Shown in pieces: positions 2,541 to 38,668 of a stretch of 64,000 nt of DNA. The position numbers and the translations under genes are program-made. This DNA is from Chloroflexota bacterium (GTDB lineage Bacteria > Chloroflexota > UBA6077 > FW602-bin22 > DAOUAE01): assembly GCA_034433795.1 (NCBI GenBank), contig DAOUAE010000013.1:1-64000 (forward strand), written 5' to 3'. Below the pieces are notes generated by a model that searched no databases, had not been told where the DNA came from, and worked only from the letters and a program-made list of their open reading frames with translations. Every line of letters starts with the position of its first letter. Position 1 is the first letter of the stretch.

Positions 2541-2987
2541 TCAGGCCACCGCCCGCCGGCGGCCGTCCTGGACCTCCAGGCCTTCCAGCGCCTCCTGGAG
2601 CGTCCGCAGGCTCTCGCCCACATACAGCATCGGCCGCTCGGTCGGCTCCAGACAGACCAGGTAGCGGCCGGCCAGCCAGTGCACCGGCCACTGACGGCGC
2701 CGGCCGTTGAGGCTGACGGTCAGGTGACCGACCGGTGGTCGATCGGGCTGAAGCCCCCGCCACCGCTGGGGCGAGAGGAGAGCGATGGCGAGCCTCGTCG
2801 GTTCGGCCAGGCGCCCGGATCGGAGCAGCCGGTCGGCCAGGATGTCGCGGAGGTCGAGCAGGCCGGCCAGCCCGGCCGGCCGGGCGCCGTCGGTCACATC
2901 CGGGCACCAGAGGGTCGGTCCGGTCTCCCGGAAGACCGGTGTCCAGATGCCCGCCAGCGGGTCAGCCAGGAGGGCGTAGGGGGCCAC
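2541..2987 (-). CDS. hypothetical protein
   Basis: 148-aa ORF (GTG start) with no recognisable motif. It overlaps the next ORF by 26 nt in another frame. It may be the 3' part of a disrupted gene. Confidence 0.3.
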   Translation of the reverse strand: MAPYALLADPLAGIWTPVFRETGPTLWCPDVTDGARPAGLAGLLDLRDILADRLLRSGRLAEPTRLAIALLSPQRWRGLQPDRPPVGHLTVSLNGRRRQWPVHWLAGRYLVCLEPTERPMLYVGESLRTLQEALEGLEVQDGRRRAVA

Positions 2988-3456
2988 GGCCCGCAGCGTC
3001 GGCGGGGCGATGCGGGCGATCTGGACCTGCGGGTCGAACCCGGCGGCCGCCCGGTAGAGCTGCAGACTGCGGATCAGGGTCGCAAGGTCGCGCGTCGTGA
3101 AGACCGGCCCCCCCCGCCGGGCGGGCCTGGTAGGTCCCGGCGAGGGCGTAGACCGGCACCACCTCCTCGTCCGGCCCCAGGATCAGCCAGTAGGCCGGGA
3201 GGCGGCCGCGCCACAGAAGGGTCCGGAGCAGCGTCTCAACCGCCGTCTGCAGGGCGGCCAGGTTCTGCCGCTCCAGCCGCCAGCCCAGCACCTCGGCCGT
3301 GTAGACGGCAGGGCGGTCGCCGCCGCCCTGCCAGTAGACCGGGAGGGTGGCCACCGGTCGTCCCTCCAGCGCCACCGTGCAGAGGTATCGGGGTGCCGGG
3401 GGCACCGCCCGAGGGGCGTAGGCCGGATTGTGCTGCCAGGCCAGGTGCAGCGGCAT
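2962..3456 (-). CDS. hypothetical protein (C-terminal 50 aa low-complexity)
   Basis: 164-aa ORF immediately downstream of amt. The N-terminal 110 aa look protein-like; the tail (GRRVRPAGPDRPHRPADAAGRGPLRPPG) looks like out-of-frame or disordered sequence. No PII (GlnB/K) signature. Confidence 0.3.
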   Translation of the reverse strand: MPLHLAWQHNPAYAPRAVPPAPRYLCTVALEGRPVATLPVYWQGGGDRPAVYTAEVLGWRLERQNLAALQTAVETLLRTLLWRGRLPAYWLILGPDEEVVPVYALAGTYQARPAGGAGLHDARPCDPDPQSAALPGGRRVRPAGPDRPHRPADAAGRGPLRPPG

Positions 3457-3483: not shown

Positions 3484-4893
3484 CTAGCCCTCCTCGGGGG
3501 CGCGCACCACCATCACCCCGCCAGGCCGCAGGCCGGCGGTGGGCAGTTCCGGGTAGCCCTCGGTGCCGTGTTCGGCCAGGTCCAGGCCGATCACCTCGTC
3601 GCGCGGCGCCACCCGCAGGCCGACGAGCCGCTGGAGCACCCAGAAGACGACCAGTGAGGCCAGGGCGACGTAGGCGAAGGCCACGCCGATGCCCAGCGCC
3701 TGAACACCGAGCTGGGCCAGGCCGCCGCCGTAGAAGAGGCCCGGCCGGCCGACCTTCAGCTGCTCGACGAGCGCGGGGGCGGCGAAGAGGCCGGTGGAGA
3801 GGGTGCCCCAGACGCCGGCCATCCCGTGGACGCCGAAGGCCCCGACCGGGTCGTCGATCCGCAGACGGTACTCGACCAGGCGGACGGTGCCGAGCATCAC
3901 CAGGGCGGCCACGGCGCCGATGATGACCGCGGCCCAGGGCTCGACGAAGGCGCAGGCGGCGGTGATGGCCACCAGGGCCGCCAGGATGCCGTTCAGCATC
4001 ATGCCGATGTCGGGCTTGCCCAGGAAGAGCCAGGCCCCGCCGAGGCCGGCCAGCGCGCCGGCCGCGGCGGCCAGGTGGGTGGTCAGGGCGACGTAGGCGA
4101 AGAAGCCGCCGACCGCCGCCAGCGTCGAGCCGGGGTTGAAGCCGAACCAGCCCAGCCAGAGGATGAACACCCCCAGGACGGCGAAGGCCAGGTTGTGCCC
4201 CGGGATCGGGTTGGGGGTGCCATCGGGGTTGTACTTGCCCAGCCGCGGACCCAGGAGCATGGCGCCGATAAGGGCGGCGGTGCCGCCCTGGAGATGCACG
4301 ACCGTTGAGCCGGCGAAATCCTGCATCCCCAGCCCGGCCAGCCAGCCCCCGCCCCAGATCCAGTGGGCGACCACCGGGTAGATGACCGTGGCGTAGGCCA
4401 GGCCGAAGAGGGGATAGACCGCCAGCCGGGTCCGTTCGGCCATCCCGCCCCAGACGATGGCCAGCGAGACGGCGCAGAAGGCGACCTGGAAGAGATATTT
4501 GGCGCCCAGCGGCACGGTCGAGGCGGCCAGCGAGGCGAAGACCGTGGCGACCTCCTCGGGGGAGACGGCCAGGAAGAAGCCGCTGGTGCCGAAGAGGGGG
4601 GTACCCGTGCCGAAGGCGACGGCGAAGCCGACCGCCCAGAAGGCCAGCGAGGCGCTGGCCAGGACGATAAGGTTCTTGGCGGCGACGTGGCCGGCGTTCT
4701 TGGTGCGGGTCAGGCCGGCCTCGAGCAGGGCGAAGCCGGCCTGCATGAAGATGACCAGGACCCCGGCCACGAGCACCCAGACCGCATCCACCGCCAGAGC
4801 CAGGTCGGCCGGCGTCGGGTCCGCCGCCCGGGCCACGCCCACCACCGCCAGGGCCGGCAGCACCCCTGCCAGCGCCCGCCGGCAGCGTGTCAT
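3484..4893 (-). CDS. amt: ammonium transporter, Amt family
   Basis: About 11 TM helices with Amt signature blocks (DAVWVLVAGVLVIFMQAGFALLEAG, GFNPGS, HGMAGVWGTLSTGLFA). Start reassigned to ATG 4891-4893 (RBS GGAGGAGG; signal-like MTRCRRALAGVLPALAVVGVARA) rather than the track's upstream ATG. Confidence 0.9.
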   Translation of the reverse strand: MTRCRRALAGVLPALAVVGVARAADPTPADLALAVDAVWVLVAGVLVIFMQAGFALLEAGLTRTKNAGHVAAKNLIVLASASLAFWAVGFAVAFGTGTPLFGTSGFFLAVSPEEVATVFASLAASTVPLGAKYLFQVAFCAVSLAIVWGGMAERTRLAVYPLFGLAYATVIYPVVAHWIWGGGWLAGLGMQDFAGSTVVHLQGGTAALIGAMLLGPRLGKYNPDGTPNPIPGHNLAFAVLGVFILWLGWFGFNPGSTLAAVGGFFAYVALTTHLAAAAGALAGLGGAWLFLGKPDIGMMLNGILAALVAITAACAFVEPWAAVIIGAVAALVMLGTVRLVEYRLRIDDPVGAFGVHGMAGVWGTLSTGLFAAPALVEQLKVGRPGLFYGGGLAQLGVQALGIGVAFAYVALASLVVFWVLQRLVGLRVAPRDEVIGLDLAEHGTEGYPELPTAGLRPGGVMVVRAPEEG

Positions 4894-5045
4894 CGCCGCT
4901 CCTCCTCCGCCTGGGCCAGCCGCTCGGGCTCGGTGGGGCGACGGCCGGCCCAAGATCACGCCGCTCGGGATCGTCTTAGGTGCCTGATCGGCTGTCTTGC
5001 AATGGGCAGAGTGACCAATTTTTCGGCGTCAGAATTGGGCGCTTG

Positions 5046-21896: not shown

Positions 21897-22838
21897 TCAG
21901 GCGGTGAGCCGGTAGACCAGGTAGCCGAGGTAGAGGGTCAGCAGGAGCGTGCCCTCCGCTCGCCCCAGACGGGGGCGCAGGGCCAGGAGGCAGACCAGCG
22001 TCGAGAGCCCCAGGAGCACCGGCAGGTCAACCGTCCGGGTGGTCTCCTCGACCGGCAGGGGCTCCAGCAGCGCCGCCAGACCGAGAACCAGCAGCAGATT
22101 GCAGATGTTGGAGCCGGCGGCGTTGGCCACCACGACCGCCCCGTGGCCCCGCCAGGCTCCGACGATGGCGATGATCTTGTCCGGCAGCGTGGTGGCCAGC
22201 GCCACCACGGTCAACCCGATGACGGTTCCGGAGAGGCCCGTCAGCCGGGTCAGCGCCACGGCCGCCTGGACGACCAGTTCGGCGCCCAGCAGGAGGAGCC
22301 CCAGGCCGCCGAGAAGCAACCCCACCTCGCCGATCAGCCCCTGACCGTCGGCCGGCTCCAGGGTGGCTGCCGTGGCTTTCCAGCGCAGGAGCCCGCGCGC
22401 CAGGGCGACGCCCAGCCCGCCCAGGTAGAGACCGAAGAGGGCCACAAGCACCAGACCGCCCAGGGCGTCTATCTCTCCCCGCCAGAAGAGCGGGATGGTC
22501 AGCAGGCTGAGCCCCAGCATCGCTCCCAGGGCCAGGCGGTCGGGCGGGTTGATGGGGATGGGCCGCACCAGCAGCCCCAGCGAGAAAGAGCCCGCCAGGT
22601 TGGCGATGTTGGCGCCGATCACCGTGCCCACCGCCACCTCGACGTGGCCACCGGCGGTGGCGATGAGGACCACCCCCAGTTCCTCCCACTCGATGCCGAC
22701 GGTCAGCAGGCCCAGCAGGATCGGTGAGAGCCGGGTGCGTCGGGCCAGGCGGGCGATGTGATCGCCGAGGAGATCGGCTCCCCGCTCTAAGAGCAGAACG
22801 CCCAGCAGAAAGAGCCCGAGGGTGAGCAGAGCGGACAC
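21897..22838 (-). CDS. Na+/Ca2+ antiporter, CaCA family (YrbG-like)
   Basis: 10-TM protein with two alpha-repeats (GTVIGANIANLAGS / GAWRGHGAVVVANAAGSNICNLLLVLG). Confidence 0.75.
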   Translation of the reverse strand: MSALLTLGLFLLGVLLLERGADLLGDHIARLARRTRLSPILLGLLTVGIEWEELGVVLIATAGGHVEVAVGTVIGANIANLAGSFSLGLLVRPIPINPPDRLALGAMLGLSLLTIPLFWRGEIDALGGLVLVALFGLYLGGLGVALARGLLRWKATAATLEPADGQGLIGEVGLLLGGLGLLLLGAELVVQAAVALTRLTGLSGTVIGLTVVALATTLPDKIIAIVGAWRGHGAVVVANAAGSNICNLLLVLGLAALLEPLPVEETTRTVDLPVLLGLSTLVCLLALRPRLGRAEGTLLLTLYLGYLVYRLTA

Positions 22839-27670: not shown

Positions 27671-28276
27671 GTGGTGGCGGATTCGGTTGTCCTGGTATTG
27701 AATCAGAATTATGAACCCCTGAACGTCTGCAATCTGCGGCGCGCGCTTGTTCTGCTGAGTCGGGGAAAGGCCGAGATCATCGAGCAGGGGCCGGGTGTGC
27801 TGCGGTCGCCCTCGCAGGTCTTCCCCCGGCCCTCGGTCATCCGGCTGGTTAATCTTATCAAGCGTCCCCGGCCCAAGGCGCGTCTCTGTCGGAAAGAGAT
27901 CTTCCGGCGCGACAATTACACCTGTCAGTACTGTGGGGCGCGCGCCAAGGATCTCACCCTCGACCATGTCGTCCCCCGCCACAAGGGCGGCCGGCACACC
28001 TGGGAGAACCTGGTGACCGCCTGCCGGGCCTGCAATCACCGCAAGGGCGGTAAGACGCTGGAGGAGGCGCGGATGACGCTGCTGCGGCCGCCCTTCCAGC
28101 CCTACGTCTCACCTTACTACGCTCTCTACCCCTATCTCCAGAGCCACCGCGAGTGGCAGAAGTTTGTCCCCGGCTGGCTGCCGGCCGAGGTGCCCGAGCC
28201 ATCGGTCAACGGCGCGGTCGCCGCGCCGGCCGAGGCGAGTTCTCCCATTGAAGGGGCCCGCCGGTCCGCTCGCTAA
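27671..28276 (+). CDS. HNH endonuclease (stand-alone, McrA-like)
   Basis: VLVLNQNYEPLNV N-terminus, then CQYCG...LDHVVPRHKGGRHTWENLVTACRACNHRKG, a canonical HNH zinc-finger nuclease motif. Start GTG 27671/27674 near GGAG. Confidence 0.8.
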   Translation: MVADSVVLVLNQNYEPLNVCNLRRALVLLSRGKAEIIEQGPGVLRSPSQVFPRPSVIRLVNLIKRPRPKARLCRKEIFRRDNYTCQYCGARAKDLTLDHVVPRHKGGRHTWENLVTACRACNHRKGGKTLEEARMTLLRPPFQPYVSPYYALYPYLQSHREWQKFVPGWLPAEVPEPSVNGAVAAPAEASSPIEGARRSAR

Positions 28277-28932
28277 CTCCCCACCAGCAGCGTCCGGAGC
28301 TGCTGCTCGTACTCCACCTTCGTCAGGGCGATCACCTCGTCGCCGGGGTGCAGCACGGTCTGTGGCGTGGGCACCAGGGCGTGCCCGTTGCGGAGCACCA
28401 GCAGGACGGCCGAGTCCGGCGGGAGGGTCACCTCGCGGAGCGCCCGGCCTGCCACCCGCGCCTGGTCGCTGATGCGGGCCTCGACCACCTCCAGGTTGGC
28501 CTGCCGCAGGTGCAGCAGGTGCACCAGCGCCTGGGCCGGCAGGGCCTGCTCGATCTGGAGTTTGATGAGATCGGTCGAGTTGACCGTGGCGTCGATCCCC
28601 AGCAACTGGAAGATGCGCTGGTTCTTCGGGTTGTTGATCCGGGCGATGGTGCGCGGGACGTTGAACTTCTTCTTGGCCATCTGACAGATGACCAGGTTGT
28701 CCTCGTCATCGCCGGTCACCGCCACCACCACGTCGGCGCGGTTGGTGCCGGCCTCCGCCAGGGTGGTGGCCTCGCAGGCGTCGCCGCGCAGGACCACGCT
28801 CCCCAGTTCCTCGGCGATCTGATCCACTTTGCGCTTGTCGCGCTCGATGATCAGGACCTCGTGGCCCTCGTTGAGCAGTTCTTTGGCCAGGTAGTAGCCG
28901 ACCTTACCGCCACCCGCGATGATGATGTACAT
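28273..28932 (-). CDS. Trk/Ktr-type K+ transport regulatory protein, RCK_N + RCK_C (TrkA/KtrA-like)
   Basis: MYIIIAGGGKVGYYLAKEL Rossmann (RCK_N) followed by an RCK_C (TrkA_C) domain. Confidence 0.8.
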   Translation of the reverse strand: MYIIIAGGGKVGYYLAKELLNEGHEVLIIERDKRKVDQIAEELGSVVLRGDACEATTLAEAGTNRADVVVAVTGDDEDNLVICQMAKKKFNVPRTIARINNPKNQRIFQLLGIDATVNSTDLIKLQIEQALPAQALVHLLHLRQANLEVVEARISDQARVAGRALREVTLPPDSAVLLVLRNGHALVPTPQTVLHPGDEVIALTKVEYEQQLRTLLVGS

Positions 28933-28935
28933 CTG

Positions 28936-29386
28936 TCAGCCCTCCTCCGGCCGCGAGGATGCCCCGCTGGCGACCTGCTGGCGCCAGCGGGCGTCCAGCA
29001 GGCGCTTGATCTGATAGGCGCCCTCGGTGGTCGGGCAGACCGTCTCCAAGCCGAGCATATGGTAGGTCTCCTCCCGCACCGGGTCGTAGAGGCGTGCGAT
29101 CACCTTGGGGACGTGGAAGATGTACTTGGCGATCTGGCAGGCCATCACGTTGGTGTTGTCGTCATCGGTCACGGCGGCGAAGATCTGGGCCTGCTCGATG
29201 CCGGCCCGGCGCAGGACCTCCTCATCGATGCCGTTGCCCACCAGGGCCTGGCCACGGAACTCGGGGTCGAGGCGCCGGAAGGCGTCAGTGTTCTTGTCGA
29301 TGATGCTGACCTCATGCCCCTCGCGGTCGAGCGTACTGGCCAGGCGGGCCCCCACCCGTCCACAGCCCAGGATCACGATGCGCATG
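28936..29386 (-). CDS. RCK_N (TrkA_N) domain protein
   Basis: Start MRIVILGCGRVGARLA at ATG 29384-29386 (RBS GGGAGGAG). NAD-binding RCK_N only. Confidence 0.75.
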
Positions 29387-29420
29387 GCTCTCCTCCCTCT
29401 CCGCCTGTCCGGCGGGCCGC

Positions 29421-29852
29421 TCACTGGTGCATCGGCTCGCGCAGGACCCAGACACGGCAGGGCGCATTTTTCAGCACGTACAGGGCGGTTGTGCCCAGGC
29501 TGAACTCGCCGAAGCGGCGTTTGTAGGGCAGCCCCATAATGATCACATCCACGTTGCGCTCGATCGCCTCCTCGACAATCGCTGGCCCGACCTCGCGGGC
29601 CTGGAGCAATTCGGTCTGGATCTCGGCATCGTTCTCCTCGGCCACGCGTTCGGCGTGATCCAGAACCAGTTCACCCTTCTCGATCTCCGGCTGGATCTCG
29701 GCGTCCAGAGGCAGCGTCCGCTTGACCTCGATGACATAGATCGCCAGGACCCGCGCTTTATAGCGCTTGGCGGTGATGCTGGCCAGCCGGATCGCCTCAT
29801 CGTCGGTCGGACTGCCGTTCACCGGCACCAGGATCTGGCTGATCGGTCGCAA
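29421..29852 (-). CDS. universal stress protein (UspA family)
   Basis: ISQILVPVNGSPTDDEAIRLA...VDVIIMG...VLKNAPCRVWVL. Start proposed at TTG 29850-29852 (GGAGG 6 nt upstream) giving 144 aa. The track ATG at 29993 would add an implausible 46-aa leader. Confidence 0.65.
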   Translation of the reverse strand: MRPISQILVPVNGSPTDDEAIRLASITAKRYKARVLAIYVIEVKRTLPLDAEIQPEIEKGELVLDHAERVAEENDAEIQTELLQAREVGPAIVEEAIERNVDVIIMGLPYKRRFGEFSLGTTALYVLKNAPCRVWVLREPMHQ

Positions 29853-30186
29853 GGTCTGCCTCCAGCGGGCAAAGTAAGACGCGGGCCGCCGGACACGTGT
29901 CCCTGGCCCGCGCTCTCCGCCCGCGTCCTCCTCTGCGCTGTGCGAGTCCGAGGCCGTCGGTTCCCCAGCATACGACATCCCTCGGTGAATCATTTAAGTT
30001 TATACCCTACCAATCGGCCAACGCAAACCGGTACCTCGGCGCGCCGGACGGCAGCCAGGACGATAGCACACCGCCGGAGAGAGCGTCAATAAAAAGCCGA
30101 CAAAAAGCCGACGCCCGTCTTCTCGCCTTGTCGGGTATAATACACGGGGGCAGCCGGCCCAAAGGCTCTTCACGGTCCGGGATGGA

Positions 30187-35541: not shown

Positions 35542-36387
35542 TTAAAAGTGGGAGCCCTGGCTGGGGTCGGAGTGCCGCAGGCGTTTGCGCAGGCCGACCG
35601 CCTTGGGCGAGCGGGCGGCGGCCTCCTCCCAGGCCCGTCGGGCCGCGTTCAGGTCGCCCTGGGCGGCGTAGGCGTCGCCGAGGAGGCGCAGGGCCTCGGC
35701 CGGGAGGCGGGGGCGGACCTCCGGGCGGTCCAGCGCCCGGACCACCGTCGCCCAGTCGCCGCGCCGGCTGGCGTGGTGGGCCTGGTCGAGGGGGAGGTTG
35801 GTGAGCACCTTGTCGAGCAGGTCGGTTGGGGCGCCGGGCAGCGCCCGCGCCTGCCGCCAGACCGCCTCGGCCTGGTCGAACTGCTGGGCCAGGACCAGGG
35901 CCTCGCCCAGGTAGTAGTAGGCGGGATGATAGCCGGGGACCGCAGCGACGACGGCGGCCAGGTGTTCCAGAGCGGCCGGAATGTCGCGGACGGTGTGTTC
36001 GGCGACCAGGAGCCGCCCCAGGTACCAGCGGGCCAGGAGCTCGGCCTGCCGGTCGGGCGGGAAGACGGCCACCGGCAGACCGGTCAGTTCCCCGTGGGTG
36101 GGGGCTAGGCTGAGCGCGGCCTCGTAGTGCTGGCGCGCCCGCTGGAAGTACCGGGCCGCCTCGCCGGCGGGGGCACAGGCCCCGGCGTAGATCTCATAGG
36201 CCTGACCCAGCGCCAACCGGAGCCGGTAGCTCTCACCCCCACGGGCCAGGAAGCGCTCGGCCCGCGCCAGGGCCTCGGCGATCGGGGGGCCCAGACGCGG
36301 CCCCAGACGGGGGAAGGTCAGAACCAGGCGCTCCAGCGCCTGCACCAGGCGGGCGGCCTGCCAGCGGCGAAACCAGGTCCTGATCAT
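35542..36387 (-). CDS. TPR-repeat protein
   Basis: Repeated A/L/Y/R-rich 34-mers (ALGQAYEIYAG..., YYYLGEALVLAQQFDQAEAVWRQA, LLGDAYAAQGDLNAARRAWEEA). Confidence 0.6.
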   Translation of the reverse strand: MIRTWFRRWQAARLVQALERLVLTFPRLGPRLGPPIAEALARAERFLARGGESYRLRLALGQAYEIYAGACAPAGEAARYFQRARQHYEAALSLAPTHGELTGLPVAVFPPDRQAELLARWYLGRLLVAEHTVRDIPAALEHLAAVVAAVPGYHPAYYYLGEALVLAQQFDQAEAVWRQARALPGAPTDLLDKVLTNLPLDQAHHASRRGDWATVVRALDRPEVRPRLPAEALRLLGDAYAAQGDLNAARRAWEEAAARSPKAVGLRKRLRHSDPSQGSHF

Positions 36388-36561
36388 AGCGTACAGTATA
36401 CCCCTGACGCGCATGGTACCGCGCGGGTGGGTGCCTGGCCGTCGCGTCCATCACGAGCGGGGCGATTTCGGCGCCTGCATTATACCACAGGGGACCGGCG
36501 GCCGGGCGGGATCCGGCGCGACGGGAGGGCGTGGGGCCGCGCGGCGTGTGGGGCGGTCGGA

Positions 36562-36843
36562 CTAGAGACGCAGGAAAGCCTGGACGGGCAGGACGAAGAC
36601 CGTTCCGGCCCCGATCGTGACCCCGCTGGCCTCGGTCGCCGGGCGGGCCTGGGTGTGCTCGTTGAGCAACTGGATCACGCGGTCGACCTCGGCGTCGTCC
36701 ACGCCGATGAGCAGCGTCGCGTTGCCCCGGCGCAGGAAGCCGCCCGCCGTGTTGATGCGCGTCGCCCGGTAGTTGTTCTCCATCAGGGCGTCGAGGATCG
36801 TCCCGGCGTCCTGATCCTGAACGATGGCTAGCAGCAGTTTCAT
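36562..36843 (-). CDS. DarA-like PII-type c-di-AMP receptor protein (DUF970/CdAMP_rec), paralogue 2
   Basis: MKLLLAIVQDQDAGTILDALMENNYRATRINTAGGFLRRGNATLLIGVDDAEVDRVIQLL...GTVFVLPV. Close match to B. subtilis DarA/YaaQ pattern (MKLIVAVVQDQD...TGGFL..GN.T..IG...VFVLPV). Confidence 0.75.
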   Translation of the reverse strand: MKLLLAIVQDQDAGTILDALMENNYRATRINTAGGFLRRGNATLLIGVDDAEVDRVIQLLNEHTQARPATEASGVTIGAGTVFVLPVQAFLRL

Positions 36844-36859
36844 GGGGCCTCCTCGCGTC

Positions 36860-37219
36860 CTACCGCAGTGTCCGGCGCGTGGCTGCCATCTGACCCTGCA
36901 GGGTGACCACCCGTTCGACGGGCAGCACGAAGACGACCGCGCCGCCGACCTCGACCTCGACCACGTCGGAGAAGATGGCGGGCTCGCCGAAGGGTGGGGC
37001 GTAGAGGACGGTGCGGGTGTGGCAGGTCTCGGCGATGATCTGAAGGATACGGTCCACCTCGGTCAGCGGAGCGCCGATGAGGAAGGCGACGTTGCGCTCG
37101 CGCAGGAACCCGCCGACGGTGTTGAGGCGGGTGCAGCGGACGCCGGCGGCCGCCAGGGCCTGGTTTAGGCGGCCGGCGTCGATGTCCTGGACGATGGCCA
37201 GAATGAGCGTGTACTCCAC
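36860..37219 (-). CDS. DarA-like PII-type c-di-AMP receptor protein (DUF970/CdAMP_rec), paralogue 1
   Basis: GTG start after GGAAAGGAGGGGAGC. MEYTLILAIVQDIDAGRLNQAL...RLNTVGGFLRERNVAFLIGA...VVEVEVGGAVVFVLPV. Confidence 0.75.
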   Translation of the reverse strand: MEYTLILAIVQDIDAGRLNQALAAAGVRCTRLNTVGGFLRERNVAFLIGAPLTEVDRILQIIAETCHTRTVLYAPPFGEPAIFSDVVEVEVGGAVVFVLPVERVVTLQGQMAATRRTLR

Positions 37220-37249
37220 CGCTCCCCTCCTTTCCGGCGTCTCAGCGAA

Positions 37250-37425
37250 CAGAAAACCGGAGGCAGTAGCCTCCGGTCCGACCGCTGACGCTACGCCTCT
37301 TTCAAATGCCTACGAGGTTAGCTGACGGGCTCGGGCTGAAAGAGCCTACCCTATCCCTGACCGGGAATTCGCCCCAACCGACTGGGTCCCCCGTTCCCCG
37401 CGGTGCGGGGATTCGGCTCTCTTCA
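37250..37425 (-). ncRNA. c-di-AMP riboswitch (ydaO/kimA class) with intrinsic terminator expression platform
   Basis: Minus strand reads GCCGAAUCCCCGCACCGCGGGGAACGGGGGACCCAGUCGGUUGGGGCGAAUUCCCGGUCAGGGAUAGGGUAGGCUCUUUCAGCCCGAGCCCGUCAGCUAACCUCGUAGGCAUUUGAAAGAGGCG. It has the pseudo-twofold ydaO layout and conserved blocks (GCCGAAUCC, ACGGGG(G)ACCCA, GGGG-GAAUUCC, CCCG-CCCG-CAGCUAAC). Terminator CCGGAGGCUACUGCCUCCGG-UUUUCUGUU ends ~20 nt before the RBS of DarA paralogue 1. Confidence 0.65.
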
Positions 37426-37441
37426 CTTGTCGGCCTGGAGT

Positions 37442-38668
37442 CTACTGCGTCTCGGTGGGGCTGTCAAGAGGGCCGCGGTATGTCTGAAGGAACTCCGCCT
37501 GCAGGTCGAAGAAGGTGCCCTGGCGGAGGCTCTCCCGGATCTGCTGGACCAGCCGGAGCATGAAACTGAGGTTGTGAAGGCTGGCCAGGCGGTAGGCCAG
37601 GAGTTCCTCGGCGACGAAGAGGTGGCGCAGGTAGGCCCGGCTGAAATGGCGGCAGGTGTAGCATGGGCAGTCGGGTTCGATGGGATCGGGGTCGAAGCGG
37701 TAGCGGGCGTTGCGGATGTTCAGTCGTCCCCAGCGGGTGTAGAGGCCGCCGTGGCGGGCCAGGCGGGTCGGGGCCACGCAGTCGAAGGTATCGATCCCCC
37801 GCGCGATGCAGGTGAAGAAGTCCTCGGGCTCGCCGATGCCTAGGAGATGGCGCGGCCAGGCCGGGGGCAGGAGCGGCACCGTCCACTCGAGGATGCGGTG
37901 CATATCCTCCTTGGACTTTCCCAGCGAGCCGCCGATAGCCACGCCGTCGAAGGGCAGGCTGCCGATGAAGCGGGCGCTGGCCTCGCGCAGATCGCGGTAT
38001 TCACCGCCCTGGACGATGCCGTAGAGGGCCTGGTCGCTGCGGGTCCGGGCGTCCAGGCAGCGCCGGGCCCAGCGGTGGGTGCGCTCCAGGGCCTGTCGGG
38101 TGTACTCGTAGGTGGCCAGCGGCGAGGTGCATTCATCAAAACAGAGAATGATATCGGCTCCCAACGCCTCCTGAATGGCGATACTCTTCTCCGGGGTGAA
38201 GCGGTGGGAGGAACCGTCGAGGTGGGAGGTGAACGTGGCGCCGTCGTCGTCGACGGTCACCAGCCGGGGGCGAACCGGGGTCCGGGCCGGGCGGGTCTCT
38301 TCACCGGGGAAGATCTTCGCGATCTTGCCCACGCCGTGTTCGAGACCGAACCCCAGGCTGAAGACCTGGAAGCCGCCGCTGTCGGTCATCATCGGCCCGT
38401 CCCAGGCCATGAACCGGTGCAGGCCGCCCAGGGCGGCCACCACCTCGTGGCCGGGCCGCAGGTAGAGATGGTAGGTGTTGGCCAGGACGGCGCTGACCCC
38501 CAGTGCGCGCAGTTCGTCCGGCGTCAGACTTTTGACCGTGGCCTGGGTGCCCACCACGATCAGGGCCGGCGTGGGAATGGGCCCGTGCGGGGTGGTGATC
38601 ACCCCGACCCGGGCGGCTGTTCCCGGCAGTTCGCGTTCGACGGTGAACGAGAGCGGTCGGGTGGTCAT
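37442..38668 (-). CDS. tgt: queuine tRNA-ribosyltransferase
   Basis: 408 aa. TGT TIM barrel with zinc site CPCYTCRHFSRAYLRHL. Conserved TPALIVVGTQATVKSL and GGLHRFMAWDGPMMTDSGGFQV. Confidence 0.9.
   Translation of the reverse strand: MTTRPLSFTVERELPGTAARVGVITTPHGPIPTPALIVVGTQATVKSLTPDELRALGVSAVLANTYHLYLRPGHEVVAALGGLHRFMAWDGPMMTDSGGFQVFSLGFGLEHGVGKIAKIFPGEETRPARTPVRPRLVTVDDDGATFTSHLDGSSHRFTPEKSIAIQEALGADIILCFDECTSPLATYEYTRQALERTHRWARRCLDARTRSDQALYGIVQGGEYRDLREASARFIGSLPFDGVAIGGSLGKSKEDMHRILEWTVPLLPPAWPRHLLGIGEPEDFFTCIARGIDTFDCVAPTRLARHGGLYTRWGRLNIRNARYRFDPDPIEPDCPCYTCRHFSRAYLRHLFVAEELLAYRLASLHNLSFMLRLVQQIRESLRQGTFFDLQAEFLQTYRGPLDSPTETQ

Follow-up and report, generated by a model that had tools for sequence, protein, structure and literature searches.

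A c-di-AMP riboswitch precedes paired DarA-like receptor genes in uncultured Chloroflexota

A riboswitch and two receptor-family genes in one probable transcription unit

In the window, by which we mean the whole 64,000-nucleotide (nt) stretch of contig DAOUAE010000013.1 (assembly GCA_034433795.1) from an uncultured Chloroflexota bacterium, two adjacent minus-strand genes of the CdAMP_rec family (PII-like proteins of the DarA/PstA family) lie behind a riboswitch for cyclic diadenosine monophosphate (c-di-AMP). The first, or "long," gene (36860–37219) has a GTG start and encodes 119 amino acids (aa), and the second, or "short," gene (36562–36843) has an ATG start and encodes 93 aa. The ribosome-binding site (RBS) of the first gene, GGAAAGGAGGGG (37224–37235), was read from the sequence 4 nt upstream of the GTG start at 37219, and the second gene has an RBS of its own, GAGGAGG (36848–36854), within the 16-nt gap between the two genes. 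Together, a promoter, the riboswitch, an intrinsic terminator, the long gene, and the short gene probably form a self-contained transcription unit.

A covariance-model scan of the window against Rfam (cmscan) returned a single riboswitch match, to the c-di-AMP (ydaO/yuaA) family RF00379 at 37428–37292 on the minus strand, which reached 97.7 bits (E = 6.4e-22) against a gathering score of 38 bits and covered the full model (positions 1–134). The sole remaining Rfam matches were tRNAs at the far end of the window. The scan bears out the first-pass annotation of this DNA, which had called a c-di-AMP riboswitch at 37425–37295, and sets its ends at those of the model. The aptamer includes the 3′ pseudoknot strand UGAAAGAG, which pairs over 8 bp with the loop CUCUUUCA and so forms the pseudoknot typical of the family, in which an internal loop (CUCUUUC) joins a 3′ tail (GAAAGAG). 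When the Rfam helices and the pseudoknot were imposed on a ten-sequence alignment of homologous leaders, 94.1% of the cells were paired, compared with 38–57% when the partners were slid. Changes on both sides were seen in ten aptamer pairs, five in P2 and five in the pseudoknot, and the pseudoknot helix (helix 6) was itself 93.8% paired across the ten leaders, with both-side changes in five of its eight pairs. None of 500 shuffles matched the observed pairing values, a control that should not be read as a probability. Judging by this share of paired cells and the both-side changes in P2 and the pseudoknot, the aptamers are under structural selection.

Downstream of the aptamer, and sharing no nucleotides with it, lies an intrinsic-terminator-like expression platform (37248–37276, minus strand). 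It consists of an 8-bp GC-rich stem closed by a UACU loop (CCGGAGGC-UACU-GCCUCCGG, 37276–37257; −16.7 kcal/mol), which is present in both the minimum free energy and the centroid folds, and a U-tract, UUUUCUGUU, directly after it (37256–37248). The terminator originally predicted between the aptamer and the first gene has its counterpart in this terminator-like GC-rich hairpin with a U-tract. A GC-rich hairpin with a U- or pyrimidine-rich tail follows the aptamer model by 10–20 nt in all ten lineages that carry this arrangement; its stem varies in sequence among them (CCGGAGGC, GCCAGGGGC, GCCGAAGGC, GCCUGGAGC, and others), while its placement and type of loop (UAUG, UAUU, or GAUU) are conserved. 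We rejected the possibility that it instead terminates the upstream tgt operon, since it also stands behind the aptamer at loci with a divergent upstream gene (L002 and L109; L numbers designate fetched loci). The RBS of the first gene is unpaired in the predicted folds. The terminator hairpin is enclosed by an outer stem (GCGUCAGCG...CGCUGAGACGC, 37220–37291, minus strand) whose end is about 4 nt short of the RBS, and similar stems occur in L002 and L103. The spacer between the hairpin and the first CdAMP_rec gene is unusually long at two loci (L104:236–531, 296 nt; L108:176–368, 193 nt).

The promoter scan identified a sigma-70-type promoter at 37439–37467 (minus strand), with a −35 hexamer TTGACA (37467–37462), a 17-nt spacer, and a −10 hexamer TAGACT (37444–37439). 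It is the sole site in the region, and it matches the consensus at 10 of 12 positions, where shuffled sequence is expected to hold 0.0 ± 0.2 such sites. The stop codon of tgt (37444–37442) is the TAG of the −10 hexamer, the aptamer model starts 13 nt after that stop, and transcription is predicted to start a few nt ahead of the aptamer. An equivalent promoter (TTGACA, in one case TTGATC, followed by 17 or 18 nt and TAnnnT), ending 10–15 nt before the aptamer, was found in all nine leaders with enough upstream sequence (the window, L002, L103, L104, L109, L023, L027, L038, and L073). Since the receptor unit has its own promoter, overlapping the tgt stop, the read-through from tgt that had been proposed to feed the riboswitch is not required. 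Such read-through may still occur, as there is no terminator between tgt and the aptamer and a polymerase reading through would meet no block.

Recurrence of the riboswitch–receptor module

The module of promoter, aptamer, hairpin, and CdAMP_rec gene(s) occurs in ten distinct lineages, in several genomic neighborhoods and with either gene order. Besides the window, these are L002/L101/L102, L103, L104/L105, L108, L109/L110, L023, L027, L038, and L073. Near-identical relatives with the same synteny were found in metagenome assemblies (L001 and L011–L020), and an identical short protein is present in the NCBI metagenome-assembled genomes (MAGs) GCA_006214125.1 and GCA_041640255.1. Exact copies of the window proteins were seen in metagenome assemblies alone, and the nearest named ProRS relatives (65–70% identity) come for the most part from Chloroflexota MAGs and in some cases from several other phyla, which fits an uncultured, high-GC Chloroflexota lineage as the most likely source. 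The gene for P0002, a homologue of the long protein with 50% identity, lies between a divergent metallophosphatase gene and a TauE gene, with a 93.1-bit RF00379 aptamer ahead of it and a 92-aa short CdAMP_rec gene after it. Among the six lineages closest to the short protein (59–68% identity), five have the aptamer directly upstream and co-oriented (L101/L102, L103, L104/L105, L108, and L109/L110); their aptamers are full-length matches of 82–102 bits, apart from that of L105, which is cut by the end of the locus and scores 42 bits.

A scan of species-representative genomes, queried with a 40-sequence alignment of short proteins (best match, 57% identity), gave 80 loci, almost all from Chloroflexota MAGs, four of which carry the aptamer (L023, L027, L038, and L073; 71–100 bits). 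A long and short pair is present in nine of the ten lineages with the module, in long-then-short order in the window, L002, L103, L109, L038, and L073 and in short-then-long order in L108, L023, and L027. The tenth, L104/L105, has the short gene alone. A degraded long gene within the 296-nt spacer of L104 was considered and rejected, as tblastn found no trace of one, so that this lineage is truly short-only. In several lineages the long and short genes overlap by 4 nt, which suggests translational coupling.

Every RF00379 match in about 0.5 Mb of fetched loci stands immediately upstream of, and co-oriented with, a CdAMP_rec gene, and the association of the riboswitch with these genes is therefore not due to chance. 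Riboswitch control is nevertheless not universal in the CdAMP_rec family. By our own count, about 27 of the 80 loci have unfused pairs, only four of which are preceded by the aptamer, and among the same 80 loci none of the lone, fused, or transporter-fused CdAMP_rec forms has one. A large group of Chloroflexota MAGs (L070–L072, L075, L076, L078, L080–L082, L084, L086, L090, L091, L095, L097, and L099) has a short (99 aa)-then-long (112 aa) pair without a riboswitch and with a tRNA gene about 1.3–2 kb upstream; the receptor pair is thus far more widespread than its control by the riboswitch.

Long and short forms of the CdAMP_rec protein

Both proteins belong to the CdAMP_rec family (PF06153, cutoff of 27 bits), in agreement with the first-pass annotation, with 93.2 bits for the long protein and 96.3 bits for the short one, of which only profile positions 1–68 align. 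Their best matches among solved structures are Staphylococcus aureus PstA, Listeria monocytogenes PstA, and Bacillus subtilis DarA (E = 1e-16 to 1e-20; about 1e-17 for the long protein against the PstA and DarA structures). Scores against the DarA equivalog model NF058593 of NCBIfam (97.9 bits for the long and 96.8 bits for the short protein) are below its cutoff of 140 bits. On this ground we rejected the label of DarA equivalogs or orthologues; DarA-like, or CdAMP_rec-family, is the right one. The pair had been described as tandem DarA-like paralogues, of which the family membership holds and a simple duplication does not. The two window proteins are 44% identical to each other, and each clusters, from lineage to lineage, with proteins of its own type (long or short), so a recent tandem duplication was rejected in favor of an old, conserved long/short pair.

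A search that used the short protein as query uncovered a subfamily of 82–100-aa proteins with the invariant core T-R-x-x-x-x-G-G-F-L-x-R-G-N. We aligned 20 riboswitch-linked proteins with PstA, in which c-di-AMP is contacted by Gly47, Thr28, Asn41, Thr97/Phe99, the 34-GGFL-37 T-loop, the backbone of Gly94 and Gln92, and His108 (Choi et al., PMC4475381). In that structure, the Gly94 amide and the Gln92 carbonyl that touch the ligand are in the B-loop, a segment of about 30 residues that moves on ligand binding and whose 94-GGA-96 kink was called universally conserved; the substitutions N41A and F36A reduce ligand binding (PMC4475381). Both window proteins keep T28, 34-GGFL-37, N41, G47, F99, and Arg26, and among the 20 riboswitch-linked proteins GGFL, T28, and G47 are kept in all and N41 in 19. 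The long proteins have a full B-loop with an EVEVGGA motif and, in most cases, a C-terminal extension of 10–17 aa; in the window, the long protein has a B-loop of about 26 residues, the EVEVGGA kink motif, and an extension of about 15 aa. In the short proteins, 17–23 B-loop residues are absent and GAG or xTG stands in place of GGA. The window short protein has a B-loop of about 13 residues and GAG instead of the GGA kink, and its PII-like core is intact.

As modeled by AlphaFold (mean predicted local distance difference test score [pLDDT], 85; predicted template modeling score [pTM], 0.75), the short protein has the beta-alpha-beta-beta-alpha-beta PII-like fold. Its best fold match is ligand-bound L. 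monocytogenes PstA (template modeling [TM] score, 0.87), followed by S. aureus PstA and DarA, and the 16 best-ranked PDB structures in the fold comparison are all PstA, DarA, or the Pediococcus pentosaceus PstA homologue 3M05. The short form is therefore a B-loop-deleted structural variant of the CdAMP_rec family, and the long form is close to PstA/DarA. Judging by the residues kept, either protein could plausibly bind c-di-AMP, with less certainty in the case of the short one.

Fusions with each other and with transporters

In related Chloroflexota MAGs, Pfam finds a long (N-terminal) and a short (C-terminal) CdAMP_rec domain as two stretches of one open reading frame (ORF) of 230–380 aa. This is the case at six loci (L024:2039–2788, L033:1976–2785, L034:2063–2788, L035:1649–2785, L047:2057–2785, and L054:2054–2758), none of which has a riboswitch, and about ten further loci have similar ORFs. 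In other ORFs, of about 630 aa, a Na+/H+-exchanger domain (PF00999, residues about 20–388) is joined to a C-terminal CdAMP_rec domain (about 527–632). Pfam identified such exchanger fusions at L039:589–2490 and L083:604–2496, and ORFs matching them in size and position are present at L067, L068, L088, and L100. A free short CdAMP_rec gene directly follows the exchanger-fusion ORF at all six loci, and at L083 and L100 this is followed in turn by a further long and short pair.

Because of the long–short fusions and the 4-nt gene overlaps, we suggest the hypothesis that long and short units may work in one complex. Because of the fusions of Na+/H+ exchangers with CdAMP_rec domains, cation/proton antiporters may likewise be a target class of DarA-like proteins. 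Two further observations concern these loci: a Na_H_Exchanger gene lies about 1.1 kb upstream of the riboswitch module at L109, and a glycine riboswitch (RF00504, 63.5 bits; L039:3717–3819) lies about 1 kb downstream of the exchanger–CdAMP_rec locus in an Anaerolineaceae MAG.

Proposed control of the receptor genes by c-di-AMP

We consider it likely that the element is a transcriptional OFF switch and that c-di-AMP exerts control at both the RNA and the protein level. The OFF polarity we infer from the precedent of the riboswitch class and from the terminator architecture. In B. subtilis, the kimA and ktrAB riboswitches are reported to act by transcription termination, and the encoded proteins are also inhibited directly by c-di-AMP (PMC10636490, PMC7288161). 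When c-di-AMP is abundant, the aptamer would bind its ligand and transcription would stop at the hairpin and U-tract (37276–37248) ahead of the first gene; scarcity of c-di-AMP would let the polymerase read through, and both PII-like proteins would be made together. Receptors made at low c-di-AMP would be mostly ligand-free, given that the contact residues are kept, and the ligand-free form would be the active one, following the genetics of Firmicutes, where apo-DarA/PstA of B. subtilis and L. monocytogenes is seemingly the active, detrimental, or toxic form when c-di-AMP is low (PMC10636490, PMC12802241). Ligand binding by both proteins and activity of the apo form are what we infer here; the sequence comparisons themselves establish what the aptamer, the promoter, the hairpin, and both gene families are, that they are conserved, and that the module recurs. 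Such a circuit would be coherent, because low c-di-AMP would both induce the receptors and leave them unliganded. The messenger would then act twice in the same direction, on synthesis via the RNA and on activity via the protein, as it does for the K+ importers KtrA and KimA.

Going one step further, the long and short proteins may form a mixed PII-like trimer that is made only at low c-di-AMP and whose target, in the ligand-free state, is a cation/proton antiporter or some other component of ion homeostasis. We offer this more specific picture tentatively and regard it, taken as a whole, as doubtful.

A number of observations weigh against the proposed OFF switch and its two levels of control. 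A consensus terminator scan gave no call at all in 36300–37700 and so missed the window hairpin, presumably because greedy stem extension (A-U and G-U pairs) consumes the first U residues of the tail; we retained the hairpin because it folds stably and is conserved from locus to locus. L038, L073, and L109 have weak U-tracts. When the 5′ arm and then the 3′ arm of the terminator were paired with the aptamer and linker of the ten leaders (RNAduplex), the energies were no better than those of shuffled arms, and the best-pairing partner differed between loci, so that no conserved antiterminator emerged. No pairing found here explains the link from ligand binding to termination. On the protein side, His108 is conserved in neither window protein, and neither the 94-GGA-96 kink nor the greater part of the ligand-contacting B-loop is present in the short protein, which makes its binding of c-di-AMP uncertain. 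In S. aureus, a preprint reports that c-di-AMP strengthens the binding of PstA to GlnR (PMC13484208), and the rule that the apo form is the active one may not be universal. Finally, about 50 ORFs of the window yielded neither a diadenylate cyclase nor a phosphodiesterase gene, so that the production of c-di-AMP by this organism is an assumption.

Some of these observations could be attributed to other explanations. If the switch had the opposite polarity or acted at another step (an ON switch, or control of translation or RNA stability), high c-di-AMP would induce the receptors and these might serve as homeostatic buffers of the messenger. The lack of an identified antiterminator for the OFF design would fit this idea, other structural switches are conceivable with the outer stem (GCGUCAGCG...CGCUGAGACGC) that encloses the terminator and ends just before the RBS, and the 190–300-nt spacers between hairpin and gene in L104 and L108 also speak for it. 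However, the hairpin lies 10–20 nt past the aptamer and shares no nucleotides with it, so that bound ligand could not sequester or disrupt it, which disfavors an ON design, and the RBS is unpaired in the predicted folds. In addition, the characterized c-di-AMP riboswitches cited here use ligand-induced termination or negative regulation (PMC10636490, PMC7288161, PMC6488665), and we therefore judge this alternative quite improbable. Somewhat different is the case in which c-di-AMP binding has been lost from one of the proteins (the short form in particular) or from both, leaving them as mere outputs of a c-di-AMP (osmotic/K+) regulon, for example as PII-like adaptors with another ligand or none. 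This would account for the scores below the DarA equivalog cutoff, for the lack of conservation at His108, and, in the short form, for GAG in place of GGA and the loss of most of the B-loop with its Gly94 amide and Gln92 carbonyl contacts. Nonetheless, T28, GGFL, N41, G47, and F99 are conserved in both forms among the 20 proteins, Arg26 is present in both window proteins, and the predicted fold of the short form is closest to ligand-bound PstA (TM score, 0.87), all of which makes a loss of binding unlikely.

Very improbable, and strongly disfavored, is that the aptamer is a decaying relic or a chance neighbor, or the hairpin a tgt-operon terminator, with no regulatory link to the genes. Such a view could draw on the presence of the riboswitch at only 4 of the 80 CdAMP_rec loci of the species-representative scan and on the start of the aptamer just 13 nt after tgt, but the aptamer clears the threshold by a wide margin, and P2 and the pseudoknot are preserved by compensatory changes. 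Moreover, the same order of promoter, aptamer, hairpin, and gene is seen at loci whose upstream gene is divergent or of another kind (L002, L103, and L109), and all RF00379 matches in the fetched loci are immediately upstream of, and co-oriented with, a CdAMP_rec gene. The transcriptional OFF switch with control at two levels thus remains our preferred reading of the locus.

Genomic neighborhood in the window

Upstream of the module are tgt and a queuosine-salvage gene, and downstream are genes for a TPR protein and a DtxR/MntR-type regulator. Within the 147-nt gap that separates the stop of the short gene (36562) from the TPR gene, which starts at 36414, is an extended −10 element (TGGTATAAT, 36479–36487, minus strand). 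Transcription of the TPR gene is probably driven from a promoter of its own, and therefore the riboswitch-controlled unit probably consists of the two receptor genes alone; no terminator was detected 3′ of the short gene.

The RCK proteins that the first-pass annotation had noted 8 kb away carry the expected Pfam domains: a KtrA-like protein of 219 aa with TrkA_N and TrkA_C (28273–28932) and a TrkA_N-only protein of 162 aa (28936–29424), both on the minus strand. A universal stress protein gene (Usp, 190 aa) adjoins them, and the row spans 28273–29993 (minus strand). No membrane partner of the KtrB/TrkH type was found among the window ORFs scanned. In Firmicutes, RCK_C and Usp domains are c-di-AMP-binding modules. 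Elsewhere in the window, an ammonium transporter gene of the Amt family lies at 3484–4959 and a Na+/Ca2+ exchanger gene at 21897–22838 (both on the minus strand). Two small ORFs beside amt (2541–3456) have no Pfam match, so that no canonical PII/GlnK gene was identified there.

Relation to described c-di-AMP systems

The closest parallels are the kimA (ydaO) and ktrAB riboswitches of B. subtilis, in which, as in the window, an RF00379 aptamer is followed by an intrinsic terminator. There, the regulated product itself binds c-di-AMP, so that mRNA and protein alike respond to the messenger (PMC10636490, PMC7288161). Their targets are K+ transporters or an RCK gating subunit in a Firmicute, whereas those of the window are soluble PII-like proteins without a transport or enzyme domain in an uncultured member of the Chloroflexota. 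A riboswitch of Bacillus thuringiensis (PMC6488665) similarly extends the RF00379 regulon, by transcriptional control, to a further potassium-homeostasis operon, kdpFABC; that switch controls a transporter operon, while the one in the window precedes receptor genes.

With the Firmicute proteins DarA (YaaQ) and PstA (PF06153; PDB 4RLE, 4D3H, 4WK1, and 4RWW), the window proteins share the Pfam family, the predicted fold, the GGFL T-loop, T28, N41, G47, and F99, and the long form also shares the extended B-loop and the GGA kink. The Firmicute protein is, however, described as the product of a single gene that forms a homotrimer (PMC4475381), in contrast to two genes behind a riboswitch, one of them B-loop-deleted. 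The P0003 loci have a single darA-like gene beside tmk, and no riboswitch was found at the P0003 locus that was scanned (L006). A more distant comparison is that with GlnK–AmtB, in which a PII-superfamily protein contacts a membrane transporter through a flexible loop (PMC4475381), and the Na_H_Exchanger–CdAMP_rec fusions of related MAGs suggest an analogous pairing. Unlike GlnK, the window pair adjoins no transporter, its output loop would be the B-loop rather than the T-loop, and its presumed ligand is c-di-AMP instead of ATP, ADP, or 2-oxoglutarate.

The gene associations described for RF00379 are K+ and amino-acid transporters, cell-wall remodeling, and osmotic-shock functions (PMC7266159, PMC7288161). 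In the searchable full-text literature we found no link of this riboswitch to DarA, PstA, YaaQ, or DUF970 genes, although such genes may be mentioned in supplementary gene lists (Nelson et al. 2013; Block et al. 2010). The circuit had initially been put forward as one not described before. This is somewhat too broad, as a c-di-AMP-binding protein behind a c-di-AMP riboswitch is already established for KtrA and KimA (PMC7288161, PMC10636490); what is new is the PII-like family and its paired form. The locus thus represents a canonical switch and canonical logic applied to a new target class with an undescribed paired architecture, and not a new kind of system.

Implications for the DarA family

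Despite extensive efforts, the function of DarA/PstA was called enigmatic in a 2023 review (PMC10636490), and the first protein partner to have been proposed, GlnR, dates only from a 2026 preprint (PMC13484208). The presence of a conserved riboswitch ahead of DarA-like genes would provide independent, evolution-based evidence that these proteins are needed at low c-di-AMP, which agrees with the genetics in which the apo-protein is active or toxic. It would also extend the control of both mRNA and protein by c-di-AMP from transporters to a dedicated signal-transduction protein. If the doubtful mixed-trimer picture were true, the RNA and protein sensors would constitute a two-tier circuit, possibly self-reinforcing as newly made receptor sequesters c-di-AMP, and the long-enigmatic DarA family would gain a concrete target class. 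In the Chloroflexota, this receptor family is much more diverse in architecture than in the Firmicute models, and the long/short pairing, the long–short fusions, and the exchanger fusions point to heteromer formation and antiporter regulation as questions for its biology.

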